NCBI GenBank assembly: GCA_944388935.1
Contig: CALXKK010000002.1
Span: 12,421-76,420, forward strand
Length of the DNA stretch: 64,000 nt
Direction of reading: 5' to 3'
Source: an uncultured Clostridia bacterium
Lineage (GTDB): Bacteria > Bacillota > Clostridia > TANB77 > CAG-508
Position numbers and translations under genes: made by a program. The notes under the pieces were generated by a model, which was not told where the DNA came from, searched no databases, and saw only the letters and a list, made by a program, of their open reading frames with translations. This document shows, one piece after another, positions 5,260-51,647 of this stretch (position 1 is its first letter; each line of letters begins with the position of its first letter).

Positions 5260-7062
5260 TTACACAAGTGCTACAGCTCCGTGTGCCTGAAGCAAACACA
5301 AATCTGTATTGTACCTGTACGCAGCAAGAACTTTTCTTCCTGCTACATACTGGCTAACGTCCTGACTGGCTTCGCTTCTATTGGCAACAACTAACACATT
5401 GTCATTACCATTCGTTCTTTCAAACACCAGCAAATCAGTCGTTATACACCGGACCTTTGTATCAGCCCTCCTTAAGAATTGGTTCTTTTTCCTGATGTGT
5501 GTCAGGAATTTTACGTACTTAAGCATATCCTTATCTCTTCTACCCCATGGATATGGTCTTCTGTTTGCAAGGTTTCCTGCTCCTTGAAGTCCCACTTCAT
5601 CACCATAGAATATAGAGAGGATGCCCGGCCAGAATGTCAAGATGAACAAGTAAAGCTTTGCAACTTCCTTGGAATGCTTGTATTCCATCCTGGACAGTTT
5701 GTGGTCCCGCTGCCACTCATAGGATTCATCCACCAATGACCATGTCCACTCACCATCTCGCCTAAAGATTTGTGAGTTGCCAAAGAATTCAATCAACCTC
5801 GATATATCGTGGGTTGAAGAAAAGTTCATCAGCACTGGAATGGTCTCTTCCGGATAATCGCCAAGAATCTTGTCAGTTGCCACCTTAAACTGTTCAGCTT
5901 GACCATATTTGATATAGCCAATTAATGCCGAACAGAAAAAGTAATTCATGACAGTATCAAGCGCTTTACCGGATGACAGATAGGTCCTACCTGTTTCGAG
6001 AGGATTCTTCCAAACTTCACCCAAGATGAGTCCGTCAGGCTTATTACGTTTAACAGCCCTACGTATACCCTCCAAGAAGAAATCTGGAAGTTCATCTGCA
6101 ACATCAATCCGAAGACCATCAATGCCACATGAAAAGAGCTTATCGATGTTACCACCCTCTCCATAGACATATTCCTGCCATTCCTTCGAATTCTTATCGC
6201 AGACAACGAGGTTTTGCATACCCCACCAGTGATCAAAGCTAATTTCACCATTCTGGTCCCTAAAGGTCTTGAACCAAGTAAAATATGGTGAAACTTCACC
6301 CTGAGCGGCACCTACTGTATAATGGTATGTTCCGTATGCATTAAAATACTTACTATCATCGCCAACATGGTTATACACCACATCAACAATAATATGCATA
6401 CCATGCTTGTGAACAGTATCGCAGAGGCTTTTAAAGTCCTCTATGGTGCCAAAATATGGGTCTGGCTTGTCTAAATCTCCCCCGTCGTATTTGTGGTTTG
6501 ACGGACTTTCAGAAATTGGGGTTAAATAGATAATATCCACTCCCAACCTCTTCAAGTATGGAACACTGTTCTCGATTCCTTTGAAGTCTCCTCCATAGAA
6601 GTCGAAATTCCAGTTTCCATTTGTATCTGGACCAATAATTGGCTCCTCACTCCAATCCTTGTGAATAATCCGTTGGCCCATTGGAATCAGCTCGTCCTTA
6701 CTTCCTCTTCTAAACCGGTCTGTAAAAATTTGGCACATTACAGCACCTTTAGCCCAGTCCGGAGTAGTAAAGCCTACTGATAGTTTGTACTGTTCAGTTG
6801 TGTGTTCTTGATACTCAGCCATATATTTAAAGCAGTACTTGTATACTGCATAAACTGGCAGAGTTACTTCTCCTGTGAAATAAGCGTATTCGCTATCCTT
6901 TCTCTCGTATTCCAGTTCAACGTCCCTTTGCACGATTCCCCAAATGATGAATCGCACATGTTCAATGAACCCTAAGGCCATTGCAATCCGGACAACTACC
7001 TTGTACTTCCTTTCTTCATTGTCCCGTCCTACTTCCTTAAGTGCATGGTAAAATACTTCCAT
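5260..7062 (-). CDS. Glycoside hydrolase family 13 enzyme (neopullulanase / maltogenic amylase / cyclomaltodextrinase-like); markedly higher GC than surroundings
   Basis: GH13 conserved regions are present: VMCQIFTDRF, VDVVYNHVG, GLRIDVADELP, EVW, FSSTHD. Start is probably ATG 7062 (MEVFYHAL...) with GGAAGGAG 8 nt upstream; the ORF track gives an alternative at 7095. Confidence 0.85.
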   Translation of the reverse strand: MEVFYHALKEVGRDNEERKYKVVVRIAMALGFIEHVRFIIWGIVQRDVELEYERKDSEYAYFTGEVTLPVYAVYKYCFKYMAEYQEHTTEQYKLSVGFTTPDWAKGAVMCQIFTDRFRRGSKDELIPMGQRIIHKDWSEEPIIGPDTNGNWNFDFYGGDFKGIENSVPYLKRLGVDIIYLTPISESPSNHKYDGGDLDKPDPYFGTIEDFKSLCDTVHKHGMHIIVDVVYNHVGDDSKYFNAYGTYHYTVGAAQGEVSPYFTWFKTFRDQNGEISFDHWWGMQNLVVCDKNSKEWQEYVYGEGGNIDKLFSCGIDGLRIDVADELPDFFLEGIRRAVKRNKPDGLILGEVWKNPLETGRTYLSSGKALDTVMNYFFCSALIGYIKYGQAEQFKVATDKILGDYPEETIPVLMNFSSTHDISRLIEFFGNSQIFRRDGEWTWSLVDESYEWQRDHKLSRMEYKHSKEVAKLYLFILTFWPGILSIFYGDEVGLQGAGNLANRRPYPWGRRDKDMLKYVKFLTHIRKKNQFLRRADTKVRCITTDLLVFERTNGNDNVLVVANRSEASQDVSQYVAGRKVLAAYRYNTDLCLLQAHGAVALV

Positions 7063-13067: not shown

Positions 13068-13736
13068 TTATAACTGCTCAATAGCTTTTTTAGCTGCTTC
13101 CATCTCTGCTGCTTTTTTTGATGTTCCTGTCCCTGTTGCTAATTGCTTTCCATTGCATCTTACTTCTGCTTCGAACACTTTACTATGGTCCGGTCCGCTT
13201 TCTTTTAAAATATTATATTCTATCTTAACATTTCCTTTGTGTTGTAACTTCTCTTGTAATACTGTTTTATAATCTTTTTGACCTACATTTTGACTAGCAA
13301 TTTTTATATCATCCTTTAAGTTAGAAATTATAAATTCTTTTACAGGTTCTAATCCTCCATCTAAATACATTGCTGCGATAACAGCTTCTACACTATCTGC
13401 TAATATAGCCTCATTTGTATTTCCATGGTTAGACAATTCGCTCTTTCCAAGATATAAGAAATCACCAAAATTATGCTTTGTAGCCACTTTATATAAACTT
13501 TTTTCGCAAACGACACTTGCTCTAACTTTAGTCATTTCTCCTTCATTTAAATTAGGATAGTTTTTATACAAATAGTTACTAGATATAAACTCTAATATGC
13601 TATCCCCTAAAAATTCTAATTTTTCATTACTTTGTACTTTTTTCTCGTATGCATATGATGTATGTGTTAATGCTGTTTTTAATAAGTTTTTATTTTTAAA
13701 GATATATCCTATATTTTTCTCAAATTCTTCTAACAT
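13068..13736 (-). CDS. rnc: Ribonuclease III
   Basis: The RNase III signature NEKLEFLGDSILEF is present, with a C-terminal dsRBD (GPDHSKVFEAEVR...KKAAEMEAAKKAIE). Confidence 0.95.
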   Translation of the reverse strand: MLEEFEKNIGYIFKNKNLLKTALTHTSYAYEKKVQSNEKLEFLGDSILEFISSNYLYKNYPNLNEGEMTKVRASVVCEKSLYKVATKHNFGDFLYLGKSELSNHGNTNEAILADSVEAVIAAMYLDGGLEPVKEFIISNLKDDIKIASQNVGQKDYKTVLQEKLQHKGNVKIEYNILKESGPDHSKVFEAEVRCNGKQLATGTGTSKKAAEMEAAKKAIEQL

Positions 13737-13864
13737 TTTTACCTCCTAGATGTTATCTATTATATAACATTTTTCAAGTTTTGCAAATAATTGTGGTCAA
13801 AATCTTCCAAATTATTCCACTAATACCTTTTTGAAAAGGAAAAAAGAAGATATTTCTATCTTCT

Positions 13865-15106
13865 TTAACGATCCTCATATGTTGGAGCTTCTTGACCACT
13901 CTTTTTAGCATCTGCTAGTTTAGGTCCATTTCTAATTATAACATCTCCTGTATTTCTACTTGTATCATATTGTGTTTTTGTATCTTGAGTCTTAACTCCT
14001 TCCATGCTTTTATTTGGTTCGAATTGTTGCATTTGTGCACCTTTAGTTTGAACATATTGATTCAATCTTTCTGCAGCTCTTAGTCCTTTATTTCTTACAC
14101 TATTTTTTGCGTCTTGAACAATTTCAGAAGCTTTTTGTGTAACTGCTGTTCCAGCATTTCCAACTTTTTCTACTGCACCTTGAATCCATTTCTTTGCAGG
14201 AGTAAATACATTATCCTTTAATTTTTGTGATTTATTAAGTGCAAATTTTGAAAAGAACATAGTAATTCTATTTCTTAATCCTGTTTTTTCTTTAAAGTCT
14301 GCAACTGCTCTATTTTTTTCATTCGCTGCTTCTAATAAACCTTCTTGCTTTGCATCTTCTAATTTTTTAATTTCTGCTTTTATCTCTGCCATTCTGGCTT
14401 TATTAGCCATAATTGCTTTTTTATTCTCATCGAATGCTTTGTTTTGTCTAGCATACGCTCTAGTTGATTCTAAGCCTTTTGCTCCCATATCACTTTCTAA
14501 TTTGGTTGCCTCAGCCATTGCTTGTTGATATTCATCAATATTGCCCTCTTGCATAGCTTTCATTGCTCTATTTCTTGCATCTTCTATTTGTGGCATCACT
14601 GACTTCATATCTTTTGCAGTATCTTTTGTACCTTTTTTTGCAGAGCTTTTAGCTTTTTTTAATGCATATTGTTCTGCTCTTCTTTCTGCATTTTCTAATT
14701 TAAGAGCTGTTCCTTCTTTTATTAATGCCTGTATTTGTGCATCATAAACACCTGCAACTTTTGCTGCACTTTTATTATATTCAGCTAGTAATTGATCTTT
14801 TTGAGCTGTATACTCATCATATAATTTAGAACCCTCTTTAATTTTTCCAACTGTTGTTGTTGCCAAACTTTCTACATTTTTTGATATAGTATCTGCACCA
14901 GTTTTTATTCCTTCTCTAGTTTTTGCAGCATTGTACGCACACCATACCTTAGCTGCTAGAGCTGCATTATCTTTTAATTGTTTAATTATATCTGCTGCTT
15001 TCATATCTTCTGGAGATACTGGTTCACTTTGTATTTCTTTATAAGCTTCATCCACAGTTGCTTGGTGCTCTGCGCTATTTACTTCGTTTTCTCTATTGTC
15101 TGCCAT
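13865..15106 (-). CDS. Coiled-coil, Ala/Lys/Glu-rich low-complexity protein (~413 aa), the large subunit of paralogous module A
   Basis: Predicted almost entirely alpha-helical, with one hydrophobic patch (RITMFFSKFALNKSQKLKDNVFTPAKKW). The most plausible start is ATG 15106 (MADNRENE...), with GGGGGA 8 nt upstream and 1 nt after the stop of the upstream small ORF. The ORF track's longer 429-aa version overlaps that small ORF in another frame. Confidence 0.6.
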   Translation of the reverse strand: MADNRENEVNSAEHQATVDEAYKEIQSEPVSPEDMKAADIIKQLKDNAALAAKVWCAYNAAKTREGIKTGADTISKNVESLATTTVGKIKEGSKLYDEYTAQKDQLLAEYNKSAAKVAGVYDAQIQALIKEGTALKLENAERRAEQYALKKAKSSAKKGTKDTAKDMKSVMPQIEDARNRAMKAMQEGNIDEYQQAMAEATKLESDMGAKGLESTRAYARQNKAFDENKKAIMANKARMAEIKAEIKKLEDAKQEGLLEAANEKNRAVADFKEKTGLRNRITMFFSKFALNKSQKLKDNVFTPAKKWIQGAVEKVGNAGTAVTQKASEIVQDAKNSVRNKGLRAAERLNQYVQTKGAQMQQFEPNKSMEGVKTQDTKTQYDTSRNTGDVIIRNGPKLADAKKSGQEAPTYEDR

Positions 15107-15107
15107 T

Positions 15108-15269
15108 CTACTCATCCCCCATTTCACGATCATATTCTTTTTCAAGTTCTTCACCTTTTGATTCGACCTTATCTGCTAAGTTCTTTAACTCATCAGATGT
15201 CATTTTATCTAAATCATATATTCGTCCGTCATAAACTATTCTCCCAAAATTTTCTGTTTCATCTGCCAT
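15108..15269 (-). CDS. Small acidic protein, 53 aa (MADETENFGRIVYDGRIYDLDKMTSDELKNLADKVESKGEELEKEYDREMGDE), the small subunit of module A
   Basis: Below the ORF-track cutoff and found by manual translation. Its stop TAG lies 1 nt before the start of the large gene. It shares the KM(T/S)x(D/E)ELxN motif with the small ORF at 22168..22323. Confidence 0.45.
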   Translation of the reverse strand: MADETENFGRIVYDGRIYDLDKMTSDELKNLADKVESKGEELEKEYDREMGDE

Positions 15270-15377
15270 ACTATCACTCTTTTCTTCCGTTATTTATATT
15301 AAGTATATCTTTTTTGCAATATTTAGTACATATCAAATATATTACATTTATGTTTATTTTTTGTTACAAATAAAAAA

Positions 15378-15402
15378 AAGATATCATAATCTCATATGAT
15401 AC
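15378..15402 (-). terminator. Weak AT-rich hairpin + U-run downstream of acpP
   Basis: ATCATA tgagat TATGAT stem followed by T8 on the minus strand. Confidence 0.4.
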
Positions 15403-15434
15403 CTTCTTTATTTTATAAAGATATTCTTTTAACT

Positions 15435-15674
15435 CTAAGCATTATCTTTAATATAGTCTACAACGTCACTTACTGTAACGATTTTTTCAGCATCTTCGTC
15501 TGGAATTTCCATATCGAATTCTTCCTCCAATGCCATAATTAATTCTACTATGTCTAAAGAGTCTGCTCCTAAGTCATCTATGAAAGATGCTTCCATTGTT
15601 ACAGATGTATCTGCAACTCCTAATTGTTCAACTATTATTTTCTTTACTTTTTCAAATATTTCTTCTTGGTTCAT
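15435..15674 (-). CDS. acpP: Acyl carrier protein
   Basis: 79 aa with the [20 protein letters not shown] phosphopantetheine-attachment motif. Confidence 0.95.
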
Positions 15675-15744
15675 TTAACTATGTACACCTCCTCTCGCAT
15701 GTTTATTTTTACTGATTAAACAATAATATATTGTTTCAAAAAAG

Positions 15745-16785
15745 TCAAGCTTTATTTTCCTTTTGTCTAAAAAATTCTTCTGTCATTTTCTCTACAGCTT
15801 TATTTTCAACGAATTTTTCTGCCTGAATTATTGTATACTCGAATAATCTGTCATCACTACTTCCATGTGCTTTAACAACAGGCTTTTTTACTCCTAAGAA
15901 TAAAGCTCCACCATATATTTTGTAATCCATTGTCTTAGCAAATCTTTTTATTGCTGGTAAACAAGGAATACTACCAATCTTAGATAAAATATTTCTTTTT
16001 AAACTATCTACCAAAGAAGCTTTTACTAATTTTCCTACACCTTCTGTTGTTTTTAGAAAAATATTACCAGTAAATCCATCTGTAATTATTGCATGAACTT
16101 TACCAGAAAAAGCATCTCTTCCTTCTATATTTCCAATAAAATTAATGTTTAATTCTTTTGATTTTTCTTTTAATAATTCATATGATTCTTTTGTTAATTC
16201 ATTACCTTTAGTTTCTTCTGTTCCAATATTTAGTAGTCCTATTGCTGGATTTTCTATTCCAAAAGTATTTCTTAAATATATTGAAGCCATCTGTGCAAAT
16301 TGTAGTAAATTAATTGGCTTACAATTTGTATTAGAACCACAATCCATTAGCAATAATTGACTTTTATATGCTGGCAAAATTCCGGCTAATGCTGGCCTAT
16401 CGATTCCTTTTATTCTTCCAACAAGTAATGTTGCTCCAGTAAGAAGTGCTCCAGAATTACCTGCAGAAATAAAGACATCTCCTTTGCCTTCTTTTAATAA
16501 ATTAAAACCTACTACCATAGAAGAATCTTTTTTATGGCGTATTGCAACTGTAGGTATATCTTCCATTTCTATTGTCTCTGTAGCGTTATAAATTTTTAGT
16601 CTTGGAGAAATATCTGATAGTTTCTCTTTATTATATAATTCTTTAACTCTATTATTAATGATTTCTTCGTTTCCTATTAATAATATCTCTGTTGACTGAC
16701 TTACTTCATTAACTGCTTTTACAGCTCCCTTTATATTGGCATCTGGAGCATTATCTCCCCCCATTGCGTCTAGCAGTATAATCAT
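15745..16785 (-). CDS. plsX: Phosphate acyltransferase PlsX
   Basis: MIILLDAMGGDNAP... is a canonical PlsX. Start ATG 16785 has a perfect GGAGGA 7 nt upstream; the ORF-track start at 16800 lies inside the RBS. Confidence 0.95.
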   Translation of the reverse strand: MIILLDAMGGDNAPDANIKGAVKAVNEVSQSTEILLIGNEEIINNRVKELYNKEKLSDISPRLKIYNATETIEMEDIPTVAIRHKKDSSMVVGFNLLKEGKGDVFISAGNSGALLTGATLLVGRIKGIDRPALAGILPAYKSQLLLMDCGSNTNCKPINLLQFAQMASIYLRNTFGIENPAIGLLNIGTEETKGNELTKESYELLKEKSKELNINFIGNIEGRDAFSGKVHAIITDGFTGNIFLKTTEGVGKLVKASLVDSLKRNILSKIGSIPCLPAIKRFAKTMDYKIYGGALFLGVKKPVVKAHGSSDDRLFEYTIIQAEKFVENKAVEKMTEEFFRQKENKA

Positions 16786-16893
16786 ATTTATTTCCTCCAA
16801 TTATTGAATTTTGACTAATTAATTTTATTATTTCTTTTGTAAAAAAGCAATACCTTTTGACCAAATAGTTTAGTTTTCTAAAATAAAATTTGA

Positions 16894-16926
16894 CAAAAAA
16901 AGAAGTGCTTATGCACTTCTTTTTAT
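16894..16926. terminator. Bidirectional intrinsic terminator after tuf (agaagtgc ttat gcacttct)
   Basis: 8-bp GC-containing stem with T-runs on both strands. Confidence 0.75.
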
Positions 16927-16940
16927 AAATATTCGGTTTA

Positions 16941-18143
16941 TTACTCGATTATTTTAGCTACAACTCCTGAACCAACTGTTCTTCCACCTTCACGGATAGC
17001 GAATCTTAATCCTTCTTCCATAGCGATTGGTGTGATTAATTCGATTGTCATATCGATGTTATCTCCAGGCATAACCATTTCTGTTCCTGTAGGTAACTCG
17101 ATAACACCTGTAACGTCTGTTGTTCTGAAATAGAATTGTGGTCTATATCCATTGAAGAATGGTGTATGTCTTCCACCTTCTTCTTTAGTTAATACATAAA
17201 CTTGTGCTGTAAATTTTGTATGTGGATGTATTGTTCCTGGTTTAGCTAATACTTGTCCTCTTTCGATATCTGTTCTTTGGATACCTCTTAAAAGAACACC
17301 AATATTGTCTCCAGCTTCTGCTTGGTCTAATATTTTTCTGAACATTTCTACACCAGTAACAACTGATTTTAATTTTTCTGTTGATAATCCAACGATTTCA
17401 ACTTCATCAGATACTTTAACTTCTCCTCTTTCTACTCTACCTGTAGCAACTGTTCCTCTACCTGTAATAGAGAAGATATCTTCTATAGGCATTAAGAATG
17501 GTTGATCTATAGGTCTTTCTGGTGTTGGGATATAGCTATCAACTGCATCTAATAATTCTTTGATTGGTTGATATACTGGATCGTTAGGATCTTTAGATGT
17601 ACTTTCTAGTACTTGTAAAGATGATCCTTTTATAACTGGAACTTCGTCTCCTGGGAAACCATATTCTGTTAATAGGTCTCTAACTTCCATTTCAACTAAG
17701 TCTAATAATTCTGGATCGTCTACCATATCGCATTTATTTAAATAAACAACGATATATTTAACACCAACTTGTCTTGCAAGTAAGATGTGCTCTCTTGTTT
17801 GTGGCATAGGTCCATCAGCTGCAGAAACAACTAATATAGCACCATCCATTTGAGCAGCACCTGTAATCATGTTCTTTACGTAGTCTGCGTGTCCTGGGCA
17901 GTCAACATGTGCATAATGTCTTTTTTCTGTTTCATATTCAACGTGAGCAGTATTAATTGTGATTCCTCTTGCTTTTTCTTCTGGAGCACTATCGATTGCA
18001 TCATATGCTTCGTAGTCAGCTCTTCCTAATAATGATAAGTATTTTGTAATAGCTGCTGTTGTTGTTGTTTTACCATGGTCAACGTGTCCTATTGTACCAA
18101 TGTTTACGTGTGGCTTTGATCTAACATATTTTTCTTTAGCCAT
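16941..18143 (-). CDS. tuf: Elongation factor Tu
   Basis: 400 aa. [17 protein letters not shown] and NKCD are canonical. Confidence 0.97.
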
Positions 18144-18165
18144 TTTTATTCCTCCTTTAATTTTT

Positions 18166-18215
18166 GAGATTTGATTATCTCTATTATTTTATTTTCTTTT
18201 TGACGCATTTATTTT
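18166..18215 (-). promoter_or_regulatory. Putative internal promoter for tuf in the fusA-tuf spacer (TTGATT-16-TATAAA)
   Basis: Hexamers read on the minus strand. Confidence 0.35.
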
Positions 18216-18269
18216 TACGAAGATAATTTTATACTATAATCTCGAAAAAATCAAGTATCTTAATAAATA

Positions 18270-20354
18270 TTATTCGCTTTTCTTTCCTCTTGTTGCTACA
18301 ATTTGTTCTAATATAGATTTTGGAACTTCTTCATAGTGTGATGGTTCCATAGAATATGTTCCTCTACCTTGTGTTTTTGAACGTAAATCTGTAGCATATC
18401 CAAACATTTCTGATAATGGAATAAATGAACGAATTTCTTCCATTCCATCATTTCCTTCCATACCTTCTACTCTACCACGTCTAGAGTTTACATCACCAAT
18501 AACTTCACCCATATATTCTTCTGGAACAGTTATTTCTACTTTCATAATAGGTTCTAGTATAACAACACCTGCTTGTTTACATCCTTCTTTGAATGCTAAA
18601 GATGCTGCTATTTTGAAAGCCATTTCTGAAGAGTCAACTTCGTGGTAAGATCCATCTACTAATGTAGCTTTGAAATCTATAACTGGGTATCCAGCTAAAT
18701 ATCCACCTTCTGCTGCATCTCTTAATCCTTGTTCGATTGGTTTAATATATTCCTTAGGAACAGCTCCACCAACGATTTTGCTTTCAAATTCTACACCTTT
18801 ACCTGGCTCTAATGGTTCCATTTCGAACCAAACATCACCATATTGTCCTTTACCACCAGATTGACGAATGAATTTACCTTGAACTTTAACTTTCTTTTTG
18901 ATTGTTTCTTTGTAAGCAACTTGTGGTTTACCTACATTACATTCAACTTTAAATTCTCTCTTTAATCTGTCTACGATAATGTCTAGGTGTAATTCACCCA
19001 TACCAGCGATAATAGTTTGTCCTGTTTCATGATTTGTATATGTTTTGAATGTTGGATCTTCTTCTGCTAATTTTGATAATGCAATACCCATTTTTTCTTG
19101 AGCTTCTTTGTTCTTAGGCTCAATAGCAATATCAATAACTGGCTCTGGGAAGTCCATTGATTCTAATATAACAGGATATTCGATATCACATAAAGTATCT
19201 CCAGTTGTAACCTCTTTTAGTCCAACTGCTGCAGCTATATCTCCTGCATATACTTTATCTATATCTTCTCTGTGATTAGAATGCATTAATAATATTCTTC
19301 CGATTCTTTCCTTTTTATCTTTATTTGAATTTAATACTGTTGAACCAGAATCTAATGTTCCTGAATATACTCTAAAGAAACATAATTTTCCAACAAATGG
19401 GTCTGTAGCAATTTTAAATGCTAATGCTGCAAATGGTTCTTTGTCGTCAGTTTTTCTTTCAACTTCGTTACCTGCTAAGTCAACACCTTTAATATGTGGT
19501 ATATCTAATGGTGATGGCATATAATCTACAATTGCATTTAATAATTCTTGAACACCTTTGTTCTTGTAAGAAGAACCGCATGTTACTGGAACTACAGTAT
19601 TAGCTATTGTTCCTTTACGAAGTCCTATTTTTATTTCTTCCTCAGTCAAATCACCTTCATCTAAGTATTTCATCATTAATTCTTCGTCTTGATCTGCTGC
19701 GGCTTCAAGCATTTTTTCTCTGTATTCTTTAGCCATATCTACCATATCTTCTGGTATATCGCATTCTTCTATTTCTTTTCCTAAATCATCTTTATGAATG
19801 AAAGCTCTCATTTTTATTAAATCTACTATACCTCTAAATTGATCTTCTGCTCCAATTGGTAATTGGATAGGTACAGCATTTGCTTTTAATCTTGTTTTTA
19901 ATTGTTCAACACAAAGCATGAAGTTTGCTCCTGTGATGTCCATTTTGTTTACATATACCATTCTTGGTACTTGATATTTATCAGCTTGTCTCCAAACTGT
20001 TTCTGTTTGTGGTTGAACACCACCTTTTGCAGCAAGTACTGTAACTGCACCATCAAGAACTCTTAGAGATCTTTGAACTTCTACTGTGAAATCAACGTGT
20101 CCTGGTGTATCGATAATATTTATTCTATTATTTTTCCAGATACAAGTTGTAGCAGCAGATGTAATTGTTATACCTCTTTCTTGTTCTTGTGCCATCCAGT
20201 CCATTGTAGCTTCACCATCATGAACTTCTCCGATTTTATGAGTTCTTCCTGTATAGAAAAGTATTCTCTCTGTTGTTGTTGTTTTACCAGCATCAATATG
20301 AGCCATAATTCCTATATTTCTTGTTTTTTCCAATGGAAATGCTCTTCCTGCCAA
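18270..20354 (-). CDS. fusA: Elongation factor G
   Basis: 694 aa. [12 protein letters not shown] and DTPGHVDF are canonical. Confidence 0.97.
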
Positions 20355-20425
20355 CTTTATTTCCTCCCCTCATTATTACATATATAATCTTCAAAATATT
20401 CTCTTATATAGTAATATACATTTTA

Positions 20426-20896
20426 TTACCATTTATAATGTGCAAATGCTTTATTAGCTTCTGCCATTCTATGTGTATCTTCTTTCTTCTTGAATGCTCC
20501 ACCGTTTCCGTTTATAGCATCTATAATTTCTCCGGCTAATTTTTCAGCCATTGTTTTTTCATGTCTTAGTCTTGCATATCTAACTAACCATCTTAAACCT
20601 AAAGTTTGTCTTCTTTCTGGTCTAATCTCTAATGGAACTTGGTATGTAGCTCCACCAACTCTTCTAGCTTTAACTTCAAGAACTGGCATGATGTTATTTA
20701 GTGCTTCTTCAAAAACTTCTAGTGGATCTCTTTGCTCTTTTTCTTTTACGATGTCAAATGCACCATAAACTATTTTTTGAGCAACTGATTTTTTACCATC
20801 TAGCATAATATTGTTTACTAATTTTGTAACAACTTTACTATTATATACTGGATCTGGTAAAACTTCTCTTTTTGCTATATATCCTTTTCTTGGCAC
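20426..20896 (-). CDS. rpsG: 30S ribosomal protein S7
   Basis: 156 aa canonical S7. Confidence 0.97.
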
Positions 20897-21040
20897 TATT
20901 CTTCCCTCCTTAATTATATTTTGATACTAATTTAGTATCTAGGTACTCTGAAAAGTATTTTTCTTTTCCGCATAGTGCTATATATCCTAAATTTAAGTAC
21001 CTTAAATTAGTAATTAGCACTAGTTTAAATTTCCTAAATT

Positions 21041-21454
21041 CTATTTTTTAGGTTTCTTTGCTCCGTATTTTGATCTACCTTGCATTCTGTCTTTAACACC
21101 TGCTGTATCTAATGTTCCTCTAATAATATGATATCTAACACCTGGAAGGTCTTTAACTCTTCCTCCTCTTATTAGAACAACACTGTGTTCTTGTAAGTTG
21201 TGTCCGATTCCTGGGATATAAGATGTTACTTCATATCCATTAGAAAGTCTAACTCTGGCAACTTTTCTTAATGCAGAATTAGGTTTCTTTGGTGTTACAG
21301 TTTTAACTACTGTACAAACTCCTCTTTTTTGTGGTGCTCTATGGTTAGTTTGTCTATTTTTCTTAGAGTTATAACCATGTTGCAATGCTGGAGCGTTTGA
21401 TTTTGTTACTGATGTTTTTCTTCCTTTTCTTACTAATTGATTAATTGTTGGCAC
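21041..21454 (-). CDS. rpsL: 30S ribosomal protein S12
   Basis: 137 aa canonical S12. GTG start with AGGAGGTG 8 nt upstream. Confidence 0.97.
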
Positions 21455-21597
21455 TTAAATTTCACCTCCTATTTTTTATTCGCCTATTCGTGCATAATAC
21501 ACTAGCGTCAACTATTTTATCATCAAAACATAATCATGTCAATATTTATACGTAATTTTTTTCATATATAAACAGGAATAAAGAGCGTTTTGATTTT

Positions 21598-21675
21598 ATC
21601 ATTACGCACCTCTTTCTAACTAAATTTAATAACCTGCCCAATAATGAGGAAATGCGGTGCATTACGCACCGCACA
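21598..21675. repeat. Direct repeat CATTACGCACC (x2, 61 bp apart) plus hairpin GCGGTGC-attac-GCACCGC, GC-rich relative to flanks, just downstream of the 80-aa membrane-protein gene
   Basis: Seen at 21598-21608 and 21660-21670. The hairpin at 21655-21673 has no following T-run on either strand. Confidence 0.5.
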
Positions 21676-21707
21676 TCCCGGATAGTACTCCTAGTTATAG
21701 CTTGGTC

Positions 21708-21950
21708 TTAGCGAGACTTAATATTGTTATAAATTCCTCTTACGAAGACCCCAATAAGTACTCCGACAAGCAAAACTAAGATGTCGCTCGGTTCAGGTTC
21801 TATCACGTTATTGACAATAGTGATAATCGTCGTTGCCGCGTTAGAAATCCAGTTGAGCAAATTCGTAAGTTCAAACTTGACCGTACCAGAAACAACGAGA
21901 ATCACTACAATAACAATAAGTATAACCCGTACGACAAATTGCTTCCGCAT
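21708..21950 (-). CDS. Small two-TM membrane protein, 80 aa, compositionally atypical (GC-richer)
   Basis: MRKQFVVRVILIVIVVILVVSGTVKF...DILVLLVGVLIGVFVRG has two strongly hydrophobic helices. AGGAGGTG lies 7 nt upstream. A perfect TTGACT-17-TATAAT promoter sits at 21991-22019 (minus strand). Confidence 0.55.
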   Translation of the reverse strand: MRKQFVVRVILIVIVVILVVSGTVKFELTNLLNWISNAATTIITIVNNVIEPEPSDILVLLVGVLIGVFVRGIYNNIKSR

Positions 21951-22087
21951 AGTACACCTCCTTATAAAAACTCCAACGAGTTACAATCTCATTATAGTAT
22001 ATTATGTAAATATAGTCAATTTTTGCTAGTTCTTAAAATGCTAGTTTTTTGTCTGTTATCACTTATATAGATTTACATAATTAGTTG

Positions 22088-22116
22088 TTGACATTATTTG
22101 CCTTTTTAAGTATAAT
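22088..22116 (+). promoter_or_regulatory. Perfect consensus sigma-A promoter TTGACA-17-TATAAT driving module B
   Basis: TTGACA at 22088-22093, a 17-nt spacer, TATAAT at 22111-22116. Confidence 0.7.
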
Positions 22117-22149
22117 ATATGTAGTTTTGATTACTAATGAGAGGAGGAT

Positions 22150-22169
22150 ATCTTAGAATTTTCTAAGAT
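22150..22169 (+). promoter_or_regulatory. Perfect 20-nt palindrome ATCTTAGAA-TT-TTCTAAGAT between the SD (GAGGAGGA, 22141-22148) and the first AUG (22168); candidate translational operator / SD-AUG spacing hairpin
   Basis: Seen directly. The 3' arm includes the A and U of the AUG at 22168-22170. Confidence 0.5.
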
Positions 22170-22323
22170 GATTTATATTATGGAAGAAAAGAAAATATTT
22201 ACAGAAGAAGAATTAAAGAAAATGTCTCCTGAAGAATTAGCAAATTATAAGGTTGCTTTAAAGGAACTTTCTTTAGATATAGATGAATTAATTAAAAAAT
22301 GCGATGAAATTTTATCTAAATAA
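22168..22323 (+). CDS. Small acidic helical protein, 47-51 aa ((MIYI)MEEKKIFTEEELKKMSPEELANYKVALKELSLDIDELIKKCDEILSK), the small subunit of module B
   Basis: Manual translation; the alternative start is ATG 22180. Shares the KM(S/T)(P/S)(E/D)ELxN motif with the 53-aa ORF at 15108..15269. Confidence 0.45.
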   Translation: MIYIMEEKKIFTEEELKKMSPEELANYKVALKELSLDIDELIKKCDEILSK

Positions 22324-22338
22324 TAATAAACGGAAAGG

Positions 22339-23628
22339 ATGGTGAAGCCTCAATTTAGAGGCAAATTTATGGCACAACAACCAACACAATTTTCAGAATT
22401 AAGTCAACAATATGGACTTATACAAAATAACAGACAGCAAGTAGCAGCTATTGAAAGTCAATTAACAGGTTATTTGGCAAGATTAACTGAACTAAAAACT
22501 CAAAAAACTAATTTAACTAACTTACAACAATTACAAGCACAAAATGCTCAACTATTTACTAGTGATGCACAATCAGCAATAGCTAAGCAACTACAACAAA
22601 TTGACGCAGAAATTAACTCTATTACAGGTTCTGTTCAAAACTTAAGAGATAATGATTTATACAAACAAAAAGATGCAATTGAGAGCGCTTCTAAAGATTT
22701 AGACTCTTATATTGAATCTGCTAACACTAATTATGCATTTAGAAGGGCTGTAGGAGAAGAATTGGTTCGTAGAACTCAAACTAGAATTGACGAACTAACA
22801 GCAGAACAAAGTAAGCCTAATGAATATGTTGCATTTATAGAAAAATTACAAAGTATAGCACAAAACGACCCTAGTTTAAAATCTATTCTTTCATCTATTG
22901 ACAAAAATAAAGCAGATATTAATAGTTTAAATATTACTAAAACTAGTTTAGATAATCTTGTAAATCAAAGTTCTGATCCAAGAGTAAAAAATAGCATGAA
23001 AGCTTCTTATATAACTATTAATAAAGGTATTGCAGACAAAACAACTGATTTAAATTCAAAATCTGATGATTTAAAGAAATACATATCAGACCATAGAGAA
23101 GATTTTGGTCTTCCAGCTGGTACAGATGACTTAAACTTCGATGATGCTACATCACCATTATCAATTGTTTCTGTATATACAGATCCTAATGAAAATAAGG
23201 GATTAGATGACTTAAAGGCTGAATATGCAAATATAGTAAATATCTCAAGCGATAGAATTGAAGAACTTAACAAACTAAATAGATTTTTAGATTATGCGGA
23301 ACATGATTTAGATACTGTAAGAGAAGAAGAACTTGAAAATATGTATACTCCATTTTTCACTAAAGTTAAAGTATTCTTTATAAACTTAAAAAATAGATTT
23401 GTAAGTTGGGCTAAAGACAAAGAAGCTCCTAAACCTATTAAAGCTCCACCAAGAGGTGCTGAAGTAGTAGGAAGTCATTCAGATTTTATAAATTCTATAC
23501 ACACAGAAATTGGACAAGATGCAATTGCAAAAGTTGCACAAAAATATGAGCAAAAATATGCACAAGAAAAAGCGCAACAGCAGCAACAAACATCACATAA
23601 CACACCGGATAATGGTCAAGAAAGATAA
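22339..23628 (+). CDS. Coiled-coil, Gln/Asn/Ser/Asp-rich protein (~419-429 aa), the large subunit of module B
   Basis: Predicted helical and low-complexity, with the hydrophobic patch MYTPFFTKVKVFFINLKNRFVSWAKDK at the same relative position as the RITMFFSKF... patch of the 13865..15106 protein. Start is ambiguous: 22339 (ATGGTG) or 22369 (MAQQPTQF). Confidence 0.6.
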   Translation: MVKPQFRGKFMAQQPTQFSELSQQYGLIQNNRQQVAAIESQLTGYLARLTELKTQKTNLTNLQQLQAQNAQLFTSDAQSAIAKQLQQIDAEINSITGSVQNLRDNDLYKQKDAIESASKDLDSYIESANTNYAFRRAVGEELVRRTQTRIDELTAEQSKPNEYVAFIEKLQSIAQNDPSLKSILSSIDKNKADINSLNITKTSLDNLVNQSSDPRVKNSMKASYITINKGIADKTTDLNSKSDDLKKYISDHREDFGLPAGTDDLNFDDATSPLSIVSVYTDPNENKGLDDLKAEYANIVNISSDRIEELNKLNRFLDYAEHDLDTVREEELENMYTPFFTKVKVFFINLKNRFVSWAKDKEAPKPIKAPPRGAEVVGSHSDFINSIHTEIGQDAIAKVAQKYEQKYAQEKAQQQQQTSHNTPDNGQER

Positions 23629-23644
23629 TTTAATACTAGATATA

Positions 23645-23677
23645 TAAAAAGAAGCAATCTTAAATTGCTTCTTTTTT
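23645..23677. terminator. Bidirectional terminator (aagaagcaat cttaa attgcttctt) shared by module B (+) and trmFO (-)
   Basis: 10-bp perfect stem with T-runs on both strands. Confidence 0.8.
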
Positions 23678-31150: not shown

Positions 31151-31927
31151 TTAAGCTCCCATCATCGCATTAAAAGCTGAATTAATTTTACTTTTATTAT
31201 CTTCCATTTGTAACGCAAACTCAAATATTTGGTTATATAATATTCCAATAGATTTTTCTACTTCACCAGTTAATTGTACAATATGGTCCTCTGATGGTTT
31301 TAGAACATAATTTTCAAAATTTTTCTTTCTATTAAGTTTTTTTATTAAATTATTAAAAAACTCTAAGATCTTACTTTTCTTTTTTGTTGTGACATCCAAT
31401 TTTTCATTAATTTTTATTTTATCAGAAAAATCGCTTATTTGCTCTATACATTCTTCTAGCCTATCATTACATTCAGCTACAATTGTCTCATAATTTAGTT
31501 TCTTTTGAATAGAAGCATTAATTTTATTTGTATAATAATGTATTTTTTCTGAATCATTTTCTTCTATTGCTTTTTCTAGATTTTGTTTATTTATACTAAT
31601 ATTAGTTACAACAATAACTTCTGATTGTAAAGCTGCAGATAGTTCTCTTTGTATATTTACATATCTTGTACTACATACATCAAATAATTTATCCAATTGC
31701 TTTTTATATTGTTCTACTAAATTCTCTATTTCTGTTTTGTATCTTTCTAAAGAATTATAATAATTTGCTTGTACATATAGTCCATCTTTAAATTCTGTTA
31801 ATCTAATCTCTTTGCTATTTGACAATGAATTTTCAAATAAAATTGCCAAATTCATTTGCTTTTGGTTTTCTACATCTACAAGTTCCTTTAAATCTTCTTT
31901 AAAGTTGTCTTTTGTAATTGTTGTCAT
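31151..31927 (-). CDS. Hypothetical alpha-helical protein, 258 aa
   Basis: Long ORF whose start overlaps the stop of the upstream gene (ATGA). No recognisable family. Confidence 0.55.
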   Translation of the reverse strand: MTTITKDNFKEDLKELVDVENQKQMNLAILFENSLSNSKEIRLTEFKDGLYVQANYYNSLERYKTEIENLVEQYKKQLDKLFDVCSTRYVNIQRELSAALQSEVIVVTNISINKQNLEKAIEENDSEKIHYYTNKINASIQKKLNYETIVAECNDRLEECIEQISDFSDKIKINEKLDVTTKKKSKILEFFNNLIKKLNRKKNFENYVLKPSEDHIVQLTGEVEKSIGILYNQIFEFALQMEDNKSKINSAFNAMMGA

Positions 31928-32328
31928 TATCTTTCACCACCTTTATCAAATACTTTGTTTCCTACATTTCTAACTCCATTACCAACCATATCTAATGTTG
32001 GGTCAGCAACTGTTCTTTGCAAAGTATCTTTAGTTGCTTGAACTGAAGTTCTAACAGAATCCATTGGCGATTTTTGTTTATCTAGAATGCAATTATCAAT
32101 AACTAAATCTTTAAACAATTTTGCTGTAATTATAGCAGGTCCAAAAAGATACATTGTGCCAACTGTCATCCCTATACCTAATACTTTTTTTACCGGGCTA
32201 CTTTTAATTATACCCCCTGCTGCTCTCATAGTATTTCTGCCAATGAATTTTCCACCTTTTTCAAATCCCTTTAAAGAATATTTTCCTACTGTTTTTGCTC
32301 CTTTTATTGCAACACTTCCTACACTCAT
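31927..32328 (-). CDS. Hypothetical Gly/Lys-rich protein with one hydrophobic segment, 133 aa
   Basis: MSVGSVAIKGAKTVGKYSLKGFEKGGKFIGRNTMRAAGGIIK...VLGIGMTVGTMYLFGPAIITAKLF. GGAGG RBS. Its start overlaps the stop of the 54-aa ORF (TAATG). Confidence 0.55.
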   Translation of the reverse strand: MSVGSVAIKGAKTVGKYSLKGFEKGGKFIGRNTMRAAGGIIKSSPVKKVLGIGMTVGTMYLFGPAIITAKLFKDLVIDNCILDKQKSPMDSVRTSVQATKDTLQRTVADPTLDMVGNGVRNVGNKVFDKGGER

Positions 32329-32492
32329 TAAATCTTCCTCCTAATACAATCTAAATAGTTAGTTACATGTTCATCTATTCTGTCCTGTATTTCGGTTTCT
32401 TTAATAGTTAAATTGTTAAGTTCTTTTCTTATTAGATTTGTATCCACCGAATCAATTTCTTGCAATTTTCCATTTACAAAAACTCCATTCAT
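32328..32492 (-). CDS. Hypothetical small protein, 54 aa (MNGVFVNGKLQEIDSVDTNLIRKELNNLTIKETEIQDRIDEHVTNYLDCIRRKI)
   Basis: Manual translation. A strong RBS AAGGGAGGTG lies 8 nt upstream and overlaps the last codons of murG, implying coupling to murG. Confidence 0.45.
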   Translation of the reverse strand: MNGVFVNGKLQEIDSVDTNLIRKELNNLTIKETEIQDRIDEHVTNYLDCIRRKI

Positions 32493-50027: not shown

Positions 50028-50303
50028 TATAGTTAAGATATCCAATACAAAAATCGATGATTAAGAGAGTAATTTTATACAGAAGCGACAGCGAGTTAGG
50101 TAGAGTGAGAGCTAACATGTGGAATATAAAATGAAAAGAACTTATGAGTGGCTATGGGAAAAGTAATCTTAGTATCATAGCTCGCGGACTCGGCGTTACT
50201 GAGAATGAGTGATTTATATAGAAATAATATTTAAAATATATAAATAACTAGAGTGGTACCACGTTTTTATAGGCGTCTCTTGTAAAAGAGACGTCTTTTT
50301 TTA
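50028..50303 (+). ncRNA. T-box riboswitch leader (probable Arg specificity) with terminator/antiterminator, upstream of argG
   Basis: Conserved T-box sequence AGAGTGGTACCACG at 50250-50263, immediately followed by the terminator aggcgtctctt gtaa aagagacgtc + T8 (50271-50303). An upstream AGAGA / GA-motif is present, and CGC/CGG triplets occur in the putative specifier region (...UCGCGGAC...). Arg T-boxes upstream of argGH are established in Clostridia. Confidence 0.75.
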
Positions 50304-50438: not shown

Positions 50439-51647
50439 ATGGATTATAAAAAAATTGTATTGTCATATTCAGGGGGACTAGATACCTCTATTATAATTAC
50501 ATGGCTTAAAGAACATTATAATAACTGTGAAGTAATAACCGTAACCGGAGATGTAGGACAAGGTGAAGACGAATTAGAAGGTTTAGAAGAAAAAGCAATA
50601 AAAAGTGGTGCTTCTAAAGCATATATATTAGATTTAAAAGATGAACTAGTAAATGATTATATTATTCCAGCAATTAAAGCTGGTGCAAAATACGAAGGTC
50701 AATATTTATTAGGCACACCATTTACTAGACCTTTGCTAGCTAAAAAATTAGTAGAAATTGCAAAAAAAGAAAATGCAGATGCAATCTGCCATGGCTGTAC
50801 AGGTAAAGGAAATGATCAAGTTAGATTTGAATTGGCAATAAAATCTATAGCCCCTGATATGCCTGTTATTGCGCCATGGAGAATATGGGATATAAAAGGA
50901 AGAAATGACGCAATTGATTATGCAGAAAAGCACAAAATTCCTTTAAAAATAAATAGGGAAACAAATTATTCTAAAGACAAAAATCTATGGCATTTATCAC
51001 ATGAAGGTCTAGACTTAGAAGATGTAAAAAATGTACCAAATTACGATAAAATTTTAGAAATGGGTGTAACACCACAAAAAGCCAAAGATGAAGAAACTAT
51101 TATAGAAATTGAATTTGAAAAAGGAGTACCTGTCGCATTAAATGGTGAACATCTAGGTTTAGTTGAACTTATAGAAAAATTAAATAAAATTGGTGGCGAA
51201 AACGGAATTGGAATATTGGACATGGTAGAAAACAGATTAGTAGGTATGAAATCAAGAGGAGTATACGAAACACCAGGTGGAACTATAATTTACAAAGCTC
51301 ATTCCCTATTAGAATCTATCTGCCTAGATAAAGATACAATGCACTTTAAACAAATTGTATCAGACAAATTAGGAGAATTATTATATGACGCAAAATGGGT
51401 TACCCCTCTTGCAGATGCAATAAATAGTTTTGTAGATAAAACACAAGAAACTGTAACCGGAAAAGTCGGTTTAAAACTATATAAAGGAAATATAATTCCA
51501 AACGGAATATCAAGTCCATATTCTTTATATTCTGTAAAGGTTGCTTCTTTTGATGATGATACCGAATATAATCAAAAAGATGCAGATGGATTTATTAATT
51601 TATATAGCTTACCAATAAAAACAATTGCAAAAATGAAAAATTTATAA
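50439..51647 (+). CDS. argG: Argininosuccinate synthase
   Basis: 402 aa. SGGLDTS (PP-loop) and canonical ArgG motifs. Confidence 0.95.

Follow-up and report, generated by a model that had tools for sequence, protein, structure and literature searches.

Gene pairs encoding a small acidic and a large helical protein in a clade of uncultured human-gut Clostridia

Genes and signals of modules A and B

The DNA analysed here, called the window, is a stretch of 64,000 nucleotides from an uncultured Clostridia bacterium (contig CALXKK010000002.1). It carries two gene pairs, modules A and B, in each of which a gene for an acidic protein of ~50 residues is followed by a gene for an all-helical protein of ~415 residues. 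Both pairs are genuine operon-like units, the large gene being co-expressed with the small one, and all four genes are real. Module A consists of the following features:

15302..15368, minus strand: conserved upstream block, from an alignment of six loci
15108..15269, minus strand: small A, ORF for a 53-residue acidic protein (pI 4.25)
13865..15106, minus strand: large A, 413 residues, basic (pI 9.3), Ala/Lys/Glu-rich, all-helical
13837..13866, minus strand: intrinsic terminator, stem of 10 bp, then a U-run; overlaps the stop codon

The upstream block is preceded by the acpP terminator (~15372-15406) and contains the direct repeats TGTAAC (15363-15368) and TGTAAT (15341-15346), followed by a −10 box, TATACT (15302-15307); a canonical −35 element was not found by the promoter scan. 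The ATG of large A is located 1 nt past the small A stop codon, with the RBS GGGGGATGAG. The terminator folds with −9.7 kcal/mol (z = −4.06), which was matched by 0 of 200 shuffles. The conserved core of small A reads FG-IV-DG-IYDLD-M(T/S)-DELK, and residues 280-303 of large A form the patch RITMFFSKFALNKSQKLKDNVFTPA.

Module B consists of the following features:

22072..22116, plus strand: promoter, TTGACA, 17 nt, TATAAT (sigma-70, 12/12)
22139..22169, plus strand: 5′ UTR element, SD-like GAGAGGAGGAT and, 3′ of it, a hairpin of 7-9 bp (22150-22169)
22180..22323, plus strand: small B, ORF for a 47-residue acidic helical protein
22347..22362, plus strand: intergenic hairpin, GCCTC/GAGGC, the 3′ arm of which holds the large B SD (GAGG)
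22369..23628, plus strand: large B, 419 residues, acidic (pI 5.1), all-helical
23646..23676, plus strand: terminator, 13-bp stem, bidirectional, common to module B and trmFO

The promoter is nearly invariant at nine loci, with a conserved TTTACATAA upstream, and its consensus form would be expected to drive strong transcription of the module. Small B has the conserved start MEEKK (consensus MEEKK..T.EELKKMSP.ELA.YK.AL.ELSLDIDELIKKCDEILSK), and the in-frame ATG at 22168 is peculiar to this genome. An SD beside the AUG is absent; the SD-like GGAGGA lies 31 nt 5′ of the start codon, and the leader hairpin sits between the two. In this hairpin 96.8% of cells are paired and compensatory changes occur at three pairs, a result reached by 4 of 500 shuffles. 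The intergenic hairpin is kept in seven of nine loci and is found in the MFE fold (z = −1.9); as covariation was not seen, it is at most a candidate regulatory element. Together, the conserved leader and intergenic hairpins may tune translation of the two genes.

The start of large B was corrected from 22339 to 22369 (MAQ...), the start found in all homologues and in the NCBI annotation, which widens the gap to small B from 15 to 45 nt. Of the spacing of 1-15 nt given in the initial annotation, the 1 nt of module A stands and the value for module B does not. Similarly, the assignment of a separate promoter and terminator to each module holds fully for module B, and for module A it holds for the terminator, the promoter being reduced to its −10 box. 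Conserved in large B are the N-terminus (MA.EFSELS..YS), a loop (HREDFGLPAGTDDLNFDD..SPL), a cationic amphipathic helix (residues ~329-349), a Pro-rich linker and the C-terminal domain DFINSIHTEIGQDA.

Distribution and inheritance

Related contigs keep all four genes at unchanged positions. Each small ORF adjoins its large partner gene in all related contigs recovered, and the small ORFs are annotated in public assemblies and are under purifying selection (dN/dS 0.09-0.36; 0.19-0.36 for small A and 0.09-0.23 for small B). The pairs exist as first described. Small A homologues occupy the same position in the related loci L001, L009, L010, L015 and L016, and small B is represented by 38 clusters with 52-100% identity throughout. 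The small partner is much more conserved than the large one: small B is ~72% identical at a distance where large B is ~33% identical. Large A is fast-evolving, its positional equivalent in L010 no longer being detected by HMMER.

Modules A and B were shown to be confined to one clade of uncultured human-gut Clostridia. Sequence, profile and structure searches with the proteins of both pairs found no known family, which agrees with the earlier statement that no described family matches; an exhaustive profile search of 1.84 billion representatives returned only 14 relatives of large B. The modules had been regarded as insertions. However, the whole 30-kb neighbourhood that includes both shows conserved synteny throughout the clade, also at distances where large B identity is only ~33%, and the sole module missing is module A, in one lineage (L017), which has neither gene of the pair. 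Both pairs are vertically inherited core genes of the clade and not recent insertions.

Module C and its probable relationship to module A

A third module (54, 133 and 258 residues), adjoining murG, was overlooked in the initial annotation:

32328..32492, minus strand: small C, 54 residues, directly downstream of murG (dN/dS 0.19-0.35)
31927..32328, minus strand: mid C, 133-residue protein rich in Lys and Gly, one segment of borderline hydrophobicity (KD19 1.68)
31151..31927, minus strand: large C, helical protein of 258 residues, 62-79% identity within the clade

The start and stop of mid C overlap the adjacent genes; the module is translationally coupled, directly follows murG and recurs as a trio in related contigs. 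Family searches with mid C gave no match. Relatives of large C (60-84% identity) come from human-gut contigs only, and no cationic amphipathic helix in the protein is stronger than the patch KILEFFNNLIKKLNRKKNFENYVLKP (µH 0.62, z +5/+6). With a small, a membrane and a helical protein, module C would form the end of the murG/dcw operon.

Small A and small C were matched by hhalign over 40-41 collinear columns with P values of 1.3e-4 and 1.1e-3, obtained from very shallow profile alignments; 0 of 200 shuffles reached these scores in either direction. The link falls to P = 0.008 with one lineage left out, and plain HMMER does not detect it. Large A and large C are weakly similar, and their homology is not significant. 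Judged from these profiles, small C is probably a relative of small A, and likelier to be so than small B; module A would more probably be a fast-evolving, dispensable relative of module C.

Comparison of modules A and B

Modules A and B had been taken for paralogues with a motif common to the small proteins and similarity between the large ones. They are not demonstrably paralogous, the sequence tests being at chance level. For the large proteins, BLASTP gave E = 0.27 and hhalign a probability of <1%; the local score was 20.9, against 19.5 for the reversed sequence, and the global score lay under the shuffle mean. The 12-residue motif of the small proteins (hhalign P 0.01-0.03) was reached by 9 of 200 shuffles and equalled by the reversed control.

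That A and B, perhaps with C, are nevertheless ancient paralogues of one small-partner and helical-protein system, diverged beyond sequence recognition, appears unlikely. Such a history would account for the like gene order, the similar sizes and the small acidic partner in first position; in addition, the top local hhalign match of the large profiles is the FF patch (275-301 vs 327-353), and the small profiles match best at the LxKM(S/T)xxEL motif. Since large A loses detectable similarity even within the clade, the missing signal between A and B is weak evidence. In addition to the control scores, however, an exhaustive search with the B profile retrieved no A-family proteins, the large proteins are of opposite charge (pI 9.3 vs 5.1), small B lacks the FG-IV-DG-IYDLD segment conserved at the start of small A, and the motif itself, on our reading, resembles a generic helix N-cap/staple pattern.

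Helical structure of the large proteins

Both large proteins are predicted to be cytoplasmic and all-alpha, and signal peptides and transmembrane segments were not found. In AF2 models of modest confidence, built from alignments of 4-5 sequences, large A (pLDDT 61) forms helices of 155, 86 and 86 residues, and large B (pLDDT 73) consists of 33-56-residue helices folded back on one another, together with a structured loop and, at the C-terminus, a further domain. Heptads, crudely scored, account for 0-27% of residues (15-27% for A and B), compared with 97% for tropomyosin. The large proteins had been called almost entirely coiled-coil and of low complexity: their helical nature and a conserved basic/aromatic patch in each are upheld, but the low heptad content makes the coiled-coil claim an overstatement, and large B, with its sharply conserved non-helical motifs, is not of low complexity.

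The proposed resemblance to crescentin and FilP thereby loses its support. Intermediate-filament-like cytoskeletal filaments of the crescentin/FilP/Scy class, with polymerisation controlled by the small proteins, are accordingly an improbable reading, although the predictions are all-helical, large A has long helices and the sizes are near that of FilP. Like this class, membership of which is set by architecture and not by homology, the large proteins are cytoplasmic, ~400 residues long, mostly alpha-helical, lineage-specific and fast-evolving; they differ from it in their low heptad content, in the bundle of shorter helices with structured loop motifs and a separate C-terminal domain predicted for B, and in showing no sequence relation to described families. 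To our knowledge, proteins of the class are not accompanied by a dedicated small partner gene.

Functional interpretation

A cationic amphipathic helix is located at 65-80% of the length of all three large proteins. In the B family (relative position 0.79) µH reaches 0.77 (z +4/+5); large B of this genome and the members of the A family are only moderately amphipathic at the patch (µH 0.27-0.48). Among 13 housekeeping proteins, just one comparable segment was found. With low confidence, the large proteins of A, B and C are best regarded as putative peripheral-membrane scaffolds or adaptors, each carrying a small partner and possibly connected with the cell envelope or division. The small protein would be bound to the large one, either as a stoichiometric subunit or as a regulator of assembly, the amphipathic helix would attach the large protein peripherally to the cytoplasmic membrane, and the conserved terminal motifs would let it act as scaffold or adaptor. 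For A and C, the process served would most likely be the cell envelope or division; for module C the adjacency to murG is no more than circumstantial evidence of a part in division, and module B lacks a link of this kind. The joint explanation (vertically inherited two-gene units, A a relative of C, small protein bound to large, membrane scaffolding through the amphipathic helix, hairpin-tuned expression of B) is given a probability of roughly 35%.

Other functions were considered less probable. The opposite net charges of large A (+11.6) and small A (−10.5), the AKKA/KKG-type stretches of large A and the neighbouring rnc (A) and str operon rpsL-rpsG-fusA-tuf (B) would suit a nucleoid- or RNA-binding large A neutralised by its partner and a translation-related module B. 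Such nucleic-acid or ribosome association is improbable, as large B is acidic, the neighbours are separate transcription units (B being divergent, with its own promoter and terminator) and a domain search detected no nucleic-acid-binding domain. Still less probable is membrane stress or remodelling of the PspA/Vipp1/ESCRT-III type, or pore formation as by ClyA/Nhe-type helical proteins: an amphipathic helix is present, but it is internal instead of N-terminal, neither a signal peptide nor a hydrophobic hairpin was found, Pfam PspA_IM30, Snf7 and HBL gave no match even at E <= 1, and the fold matches, of short aligned length or large rmsd, did not surpass those to dozens of other, unrelated helical hairpins. 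A mobile or phage-derived secreted substrate with its chaperone, or a toxin-antidote pair, is very improbable; the gene of the small acidic partner directly precedes that of the large protein, as is the case for many chaperones, and the N-terminal peptide of large B is conserved, but synteny in the core-genome context is strict, there is purifying selection, phage or viral matches are absent by sequence and fold, no secretion-system or immunity genes were found nearby, and no enzymatic or toxin domain was detected in the proteins.

Comparison with known systems

Amphipathic-helix-anchored division and morphogenesis proteins include FtsA, MinD, SepF and the EzrA/DivIVA/GpsB-type scaffolds. The amphipathic helix of the putative scaffolds, which is short, cationic and rich in aromatic residues (such as RIKNFFKKVGHGIKNWF for the B family and KILEFFNNLIKKLNRKK for C), recalls known membrane-targeting sequences, and module C closes the dcw/murG operon. 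Unlike in these anchors, the helix is internal (65-80% of length) and not terminal, and no homology to any of the families was found.

A weak match to positions 13-48 of the YqgQ-like profile (PF06014), in one register around FG-IV/IY-G, occurs in three of the six homologues of small A, at sub-threshold scores (13-17 bits vs a cut-off of 25); small A of the window itself has no match. We know of no function assigned to YqgQ.

Hairpins that bridge SD and start codon occur in phage T4 genes 38 and 25, and STAB-SD sequences, as in cryIIIA, stabilise mRNA at the 5′ end. The leader of module B is a candidate of a similar kind, with a distant strong SD-like GGAGGA and a covarying hairpin in between; the hairpin is present in the MFE fold and has an energy unremarkable for its composition (z = −0.65). 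A gene for RNase J is also present in the window.

Gene structure of modules A and B

Modules A and B each pair a small gene with a large one. Module B is encoded on the plus strand, flanked by the str operon and trmFO.

Genes of modules A and B and flanks of module A (window coordinates)
13068-13736: rnc, one flank of module A
15106 (ATG start), minus strand: large A, 413-aa ORF, beginning 1 nt past the small A TAG
15108-15269, minus strand: small A, 53-aa ORF
15435-15674: acpP, the other flank of the minus-strand module A
22180-22323, plus strand: small B, 47 aa
22369 (start), plus strand: large B, MAQ..., 419 aa

The large A ATG at 15106 is preceded by GGGGGATGAG. A 429-aa GTG-initiated version of large A, which overlaps small A, was rejected; it receives no support from the homologues, which begin MxD.... 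All small B homologues start with MEEKK or MKEEK, and the in-frame ATG ahead of the gene at 22168 is particular to the window genome. A large B start at 22339 was ruled out by every homologue, by the loss of the frame or the ATG at this site in other genomes and by the public collections, which carry the 419-aa version. G+C content is ~30 % across the region, with no compositional break at either module.

Conservation and selection

The genes described in the initial annotation are real, as judged from their relatives, from the small ORFs upstream in related loci and from low dN/dS values. Three relatives of large A (55-99 % identity) were found. For large B, a word-indexed search gave a 310-aa fragment besides five relatives of full length (36-100 % identity), and 14 relatives came from running HMMER exhaustively against 1.84 billion representative proteins. 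Small ORFs precede the large genes in all related loci that carry the module, whether or not they were called by the assembler. By the Nei-Gojobori method, dN/dS was 0.09-0.23 for small B, 0.19-0.33 for small A and 0.19-0.35 for small C (the small gene of a third module, described below). The small B profile retrieved 38 protein clusters with identities of 52-100 % throughout.

Conservation is far stronger in the small partner. Comparison of the window with the related contig L010 gave identities of ~72 % for small B and ~33 % for large B; in the same contig small A is recognisable, and the 349-aa protein at the large-A position is undetected by the A-family HMM. In such a pair, as this case illustrates, the conserved anchor can be the small ORF, with a large protein that diverges until it is no longer recognised. 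In the related locus L015 (1291-2392) large A is broken into two ORFs (63 aa and 297 aa); it is intact (365 aa) in the near-identical assembly L016 (1087-2184); frameshifted versions of large B also exist (proteins P0008 and P0012). These reflect either assembly error or occasional pseudogenisation.

Distribution and synteny

Gene order in the clade is radical-SAM gene, rnc, [large A, small A], acpP, plsX, tuf, fusA, rpsG, rpsL, small membrane protein(s), [small B, large B], trmFO, SNF2 helicase, topA, DUF6514. Because this neighbourhood is collinear even where the large B of a contig retains only about one-third identity, modules A and B are ancestral and vertically inherited rather than recent insertions, and the initial wording "inserted" was misleading. 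In the related contig L017 the acpP-rnc spacer (255 nt) contains no ORF and module B is kept; module A is therefore dispensable or lost there. The region upstream of module B differs in another related contig (L018).

A scan of one genome per species (185,579 species) gave one further locus only, in an "uncultured Clostridia bacterium" MAG. Large C was found in 31 metagenome loci. No relatives outside the clade were detected in the 185,579 species genomes, the 1.84-billion library, the small-B clusters or the large-C metagenome loci. Both the contig names and the metagenome scan indicate the human gut as the habitat of the clade; large C was found in human-gut contigs only, within the reach of the search. 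The lineage is an uncultured, apparently small-genome Clostridia clade that is common in human-gut metagenomes.

The str operon (rpsL-rpsG-fusA-tuf) runs directly into plsX-acpP-rnc (window 15745-21454, minus strand), an unusual arrangement found clade-wide. No smc follows rnc in it; in other Firmicutes smc is expected at this place. An 80-aa membrane protein gene (21708-21950, minus strand; weak YuiB-like match, E=0.004) is divergent from module B. The equivalent position in related loci mostly holds small unannotated genes (76-141 aa), two side by side, and the second of these is apparently missing in the window.

Comparison of modules A and B

The striking element of the initial annotation was the claim that A and B are two paralogous modules. 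This claim is not supported: comparisons of both the large and the small proteins stay at control level. Large A and large B gave a BLASTP E value of 0.27 and an hhalign probability of 0.6-0.9 %, and their global collinear alignment scored 2.9, below the block-shuffle mean of 4.4±3.1. No A-family protein was retrieved by the B profile in the exhaustive search of 1.84 billion representatives. The pI is 9.3 for large A versus 5.1 for large B. The hydrophobic FF(S/T)K-containing patch said to be common to both (A 275-301, B 327-353) is indeed the best local profile alignment of the large proteins, but it is not significant, since the reversed-sequence control scores about as high (19.5 versus 20.9).

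The motif attributed to both small proteins had a similar outcome. A 12-residue stretch (DLDKMTSDELKN in A, ELKKMSPEELAN in B) does align, and is the only part that does, but not beyond chance: hhalign scored 13.3 versus a null of 9.4±1.9, the reversed control gave 12.7 and 9/200 column shuffles reached the score. The stretch has the form of what we take to be a common helix N-cap/hydrophobic-staple pattern. Small A carries a conserved N-terminal FG-IV-DG-IYDLD segment; small B has none.

Module C and its probable relation to module A

A third set of genes, absent from the initial annotation, lies beside murG.

Genes of module C and murG (window coordinates)
31151-31927, minus strand: large C, 258 aa
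31927-32328, minus strand: mid C, 133 aa
32328-32492, minus strand: small C, 54 aa
32508-33629, minus strand: murG

The three genes follow murG directly and are translationally coupled by overlapping start and stop codons; the trio was found in all related loci. It is appended to the murG/dcw operon, and includes a putative bitopic membrane protein. Large C is 62-79 % identical across relatives. A small-protein HMM search of the 64,000-nt window gave no further modules.

The alignment of small C (MNGVFVNGKLQEIDSVD...) with small A spans 40-41 collinear columns (hhalign, both directions: P=1.3e-4 and 1.1e-3, probability 21-54 %, z=5.4-6.8), and 0/200 shuffles reached the score in each direction. 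The P value rises to 0.008 if L010 is left out, and HMMER alone does not see the match (E ~1-2). On these profile comparisons a relation of small A and small C is probable, though not proven. Large C carries KILEFFNNLIKKLNRKKNFENYVLKP, which is closer to the A patch (RITMFFSKFALNKSQKLKDNVFTPA) than the B patch is; the tests are not significant. Large A versus large C gave P=0.023 or 0.31, depending on the direction, and 5/60 block shuffles reached the global score. Against a six-frame background, HMMs of the FF patch placed the patches of the other modules near the top rank at a non-significant E value of ~1-2.

Predicted structure

Large A and large B are predicted to be all-alpha (AF2). The large A model (pLDDT 61) has helices at 32-186, 190-275 and 277-362 and a disordered tail. 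In the large B model (pLDDT 73), five folded-back helices, each 33-56 residues long, lead into a conserved non-helical loop (HREDFGLPAGTDDLNFDD..SPL), after which come short helices and an amphipathic helix (329-345); the C-terminal part consists of a Pro-rich disordered linker and then a helical domain. No transmembrane segment was found in large A, B or C.

Large A, B and C have only one feature in common, an amphipathic helix that is cationic and rich in aromatic residues and lies at 65-80 % of the protein length. The patch covers about residues 329-349 in large B and 186-203 in large C. In the B family it lies at a relative position of ~0.79 in nearly all members; seven members have µH of 0.58-0.77 with z of +4/+5, and the others have lower values (0.41 in the window's own large B). 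In large C, at 0.72, µH is 0.62-0.63 with z of +5/+6, and the helix is the top-scoring window in 3/4 sequences tested. The A family helix is weaker (µH 0.11-0.48). Only one of 13 housekeeping proteins of the window has a comparable amphipathic window. A conserved cationic helix of high µH marks these proteins, on sequence, as putative carriers of a membrane-targeting amphipathic helix, which is a functional class and not a homology family.

Expression signals

Signals of module B (window coordinates, plus strand)
22088-22116: promoter, perfect TTGACA-17-TATAAT; predicted transcription start ~22123
22139-22149: SD-like GAGAGGAGGAT in the leader, 31 nt upstream of the small-B AUG
22150-22169: leader hairpin, 7-9 bp, between GAGAGGAGGAT and the small-B AUG
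22347-22362: conserved intergenic hairpin GCCUC/GAGGC, containing the large B SD
23646-23676: terminator, 13 bp

The module B promoter, with conserved TTTACATAA upstream, is nearly invariant in nine genomes; ~45 nt (22072-22116, plus strand) are nearly invariant where the proteins are down to ~33 % identity. The related contig L005 (about 5690-5760) has the TTTACATAA...TTGACATTATTT segment in two tandem copies. The leader hairpin covaries (three compensatory changes, 96.8 % paired; 4/500 shuffles). As no SD is adjacent to the small-B AUG, the leader could be an SD-bridging hairpin that joins SD and AUG, or a STAB-SD-type element whose SD-like site stabilises the mRNA. The intergenic hairpin is part of a conserved element, GAGAGGATGGTGAAGCCTCA...GAGGCAAAT (22330-22368, plus strand), which is missing from the L015/L017 lineage. 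The CCUC arm could also pair with a GAGAGG located upstream, in competition with the hairpin, and this hints at a translational switch.

Module A is located after the acpP terminator. Its upstream block contains conserved TGTAAC and TGTAAT direct repeats and a -10 box, with no canonical -35; its SD is of the AGGTGAT type and its terminator overlaps the stop codon. The repeats (15341-15368, minus strand) are 16 nt apart, are conserved in six genomes and look like a candidate transcription-factor binding site. No known RNA was found in the leaders by using Rfam.

Relation to known systems and interpretation

Searches of Pfam, NCBIfam and PHROGs with the four A/B proteins and module C gave sub-threshold noise only, PDB sequence profiles gave nothing below E=0.05, and no account of the module genes was found in the literature. 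An origin of the large proteins as a phage tape-measure or SMC fragment, raised initially as a possible objection, was not borne out: there was no PHROG match, no tblastn match in 50,697 phage records and no SMC match in Pfam/NCBIfam, and viral structure predictions (BFVD Foldseek) gave a best E value of 0.046 with TM<=0.24. In the small A family, 3/6 members gave sub-threshold matches to the YqgQ-like family PF06014 (best 17.3 bits, E=0.005; gathering threshold 25 bits); the window's own small A gave none. A reading of small B as an Sda anti-kinase was rejected (hhalign versus B. subtilis Sda, probability 0.5 %, P=0.11; no Pfam Sda match).

Several explanations compete for the large proteins. 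Intermediate-filament-like filaments would agree with the all-alpha predictions and with the initial description as "almost entirely coiled-coil". That description was overstated, because heptad-like windows cover only 0-17 % of residues in A and 16-27 % in B, by a crude score on which tropomyosin reaches 97 % and globular controls 0 %. Unlike crescentin/FilP (IF-like, coiled-coil-rich), neither large A nor large B shows a long near-continuous heptad rod, and with large B modelled as short folded-back helices the analogy is weak. A PspA/ESCRT-III-like or pore-forming role would accord with a helical protein that carries an amphipathic helix; neither a PspA_IM30/Snf7 profile match nor a specific structural match was found, and membrane-spanning segments are absent. 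Association with nucleic acids is a further rival. A SAP/HeH-like reading of the LxKM(S/T)xxEL motif has a single weak match, in one member (E=0.014). A secreted substrate with its chaperone would also account for a coupled small and large gene. Ancient paralogy of A and B, perhaps with C, is another rival; for A and B the comparisons stay at control level.

What is observed is three orphan, clade-restricted operons, A, B and C, whose small partners are under strong constraint and whose large proteins are helical and non-membrane-spanning, with a conserved amphipathic cationic helix. In the reading that we prefer, each small protein would bind its large partner, as suggested by gene coupling and, for A, by charge (+11.6 for the large and -10.5 for the small protein). 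The large proteins would use this helix to dock on the membrane and might scaffold other factors via conserved terminal motifs, and A and C would function in envelope or division processes. We give this mechanism as a whole a low probability of about 0.3-0.35. Core-genome context, the consensus promoter and structured leaders of module B and the position of module C at dcw/murG make the modules concrete candidates for lineage-specific envelope/division factors. Bolder still, and distinctly improbable, is the proposal that A, B and C are undescribed clade-specific membrane-anchored helical scaffolds (small subunit plus internal amphipathic anchor), of which at least one (C, with A as an offshoot) would act in the divisome or in cell-wall synthesis as a new component of this small-genome gut Clostridia lineage, possibly replacing canonical FtsZ/PG-synthase tethers. 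At present the products are well-documented conserved hypothetical proteins and not a demonstrated new system; beyond the gene pairs, module C at murG is a useful lead and the conserved leaders are of interest.

Other features of the window

A 2584-aa ORF (56157-63911, minus strand) contains GH94 catalytic and supersandwich domains and a glucoamylase-like domain; we presume it to be a cyclic beta-1,2-glucan synthase or a phosphorylase-type giant protein. A T-box leader (50048-50283, plus strand; 105.7 bits) lies upstream of a 402-aa ORF (50439-51647).
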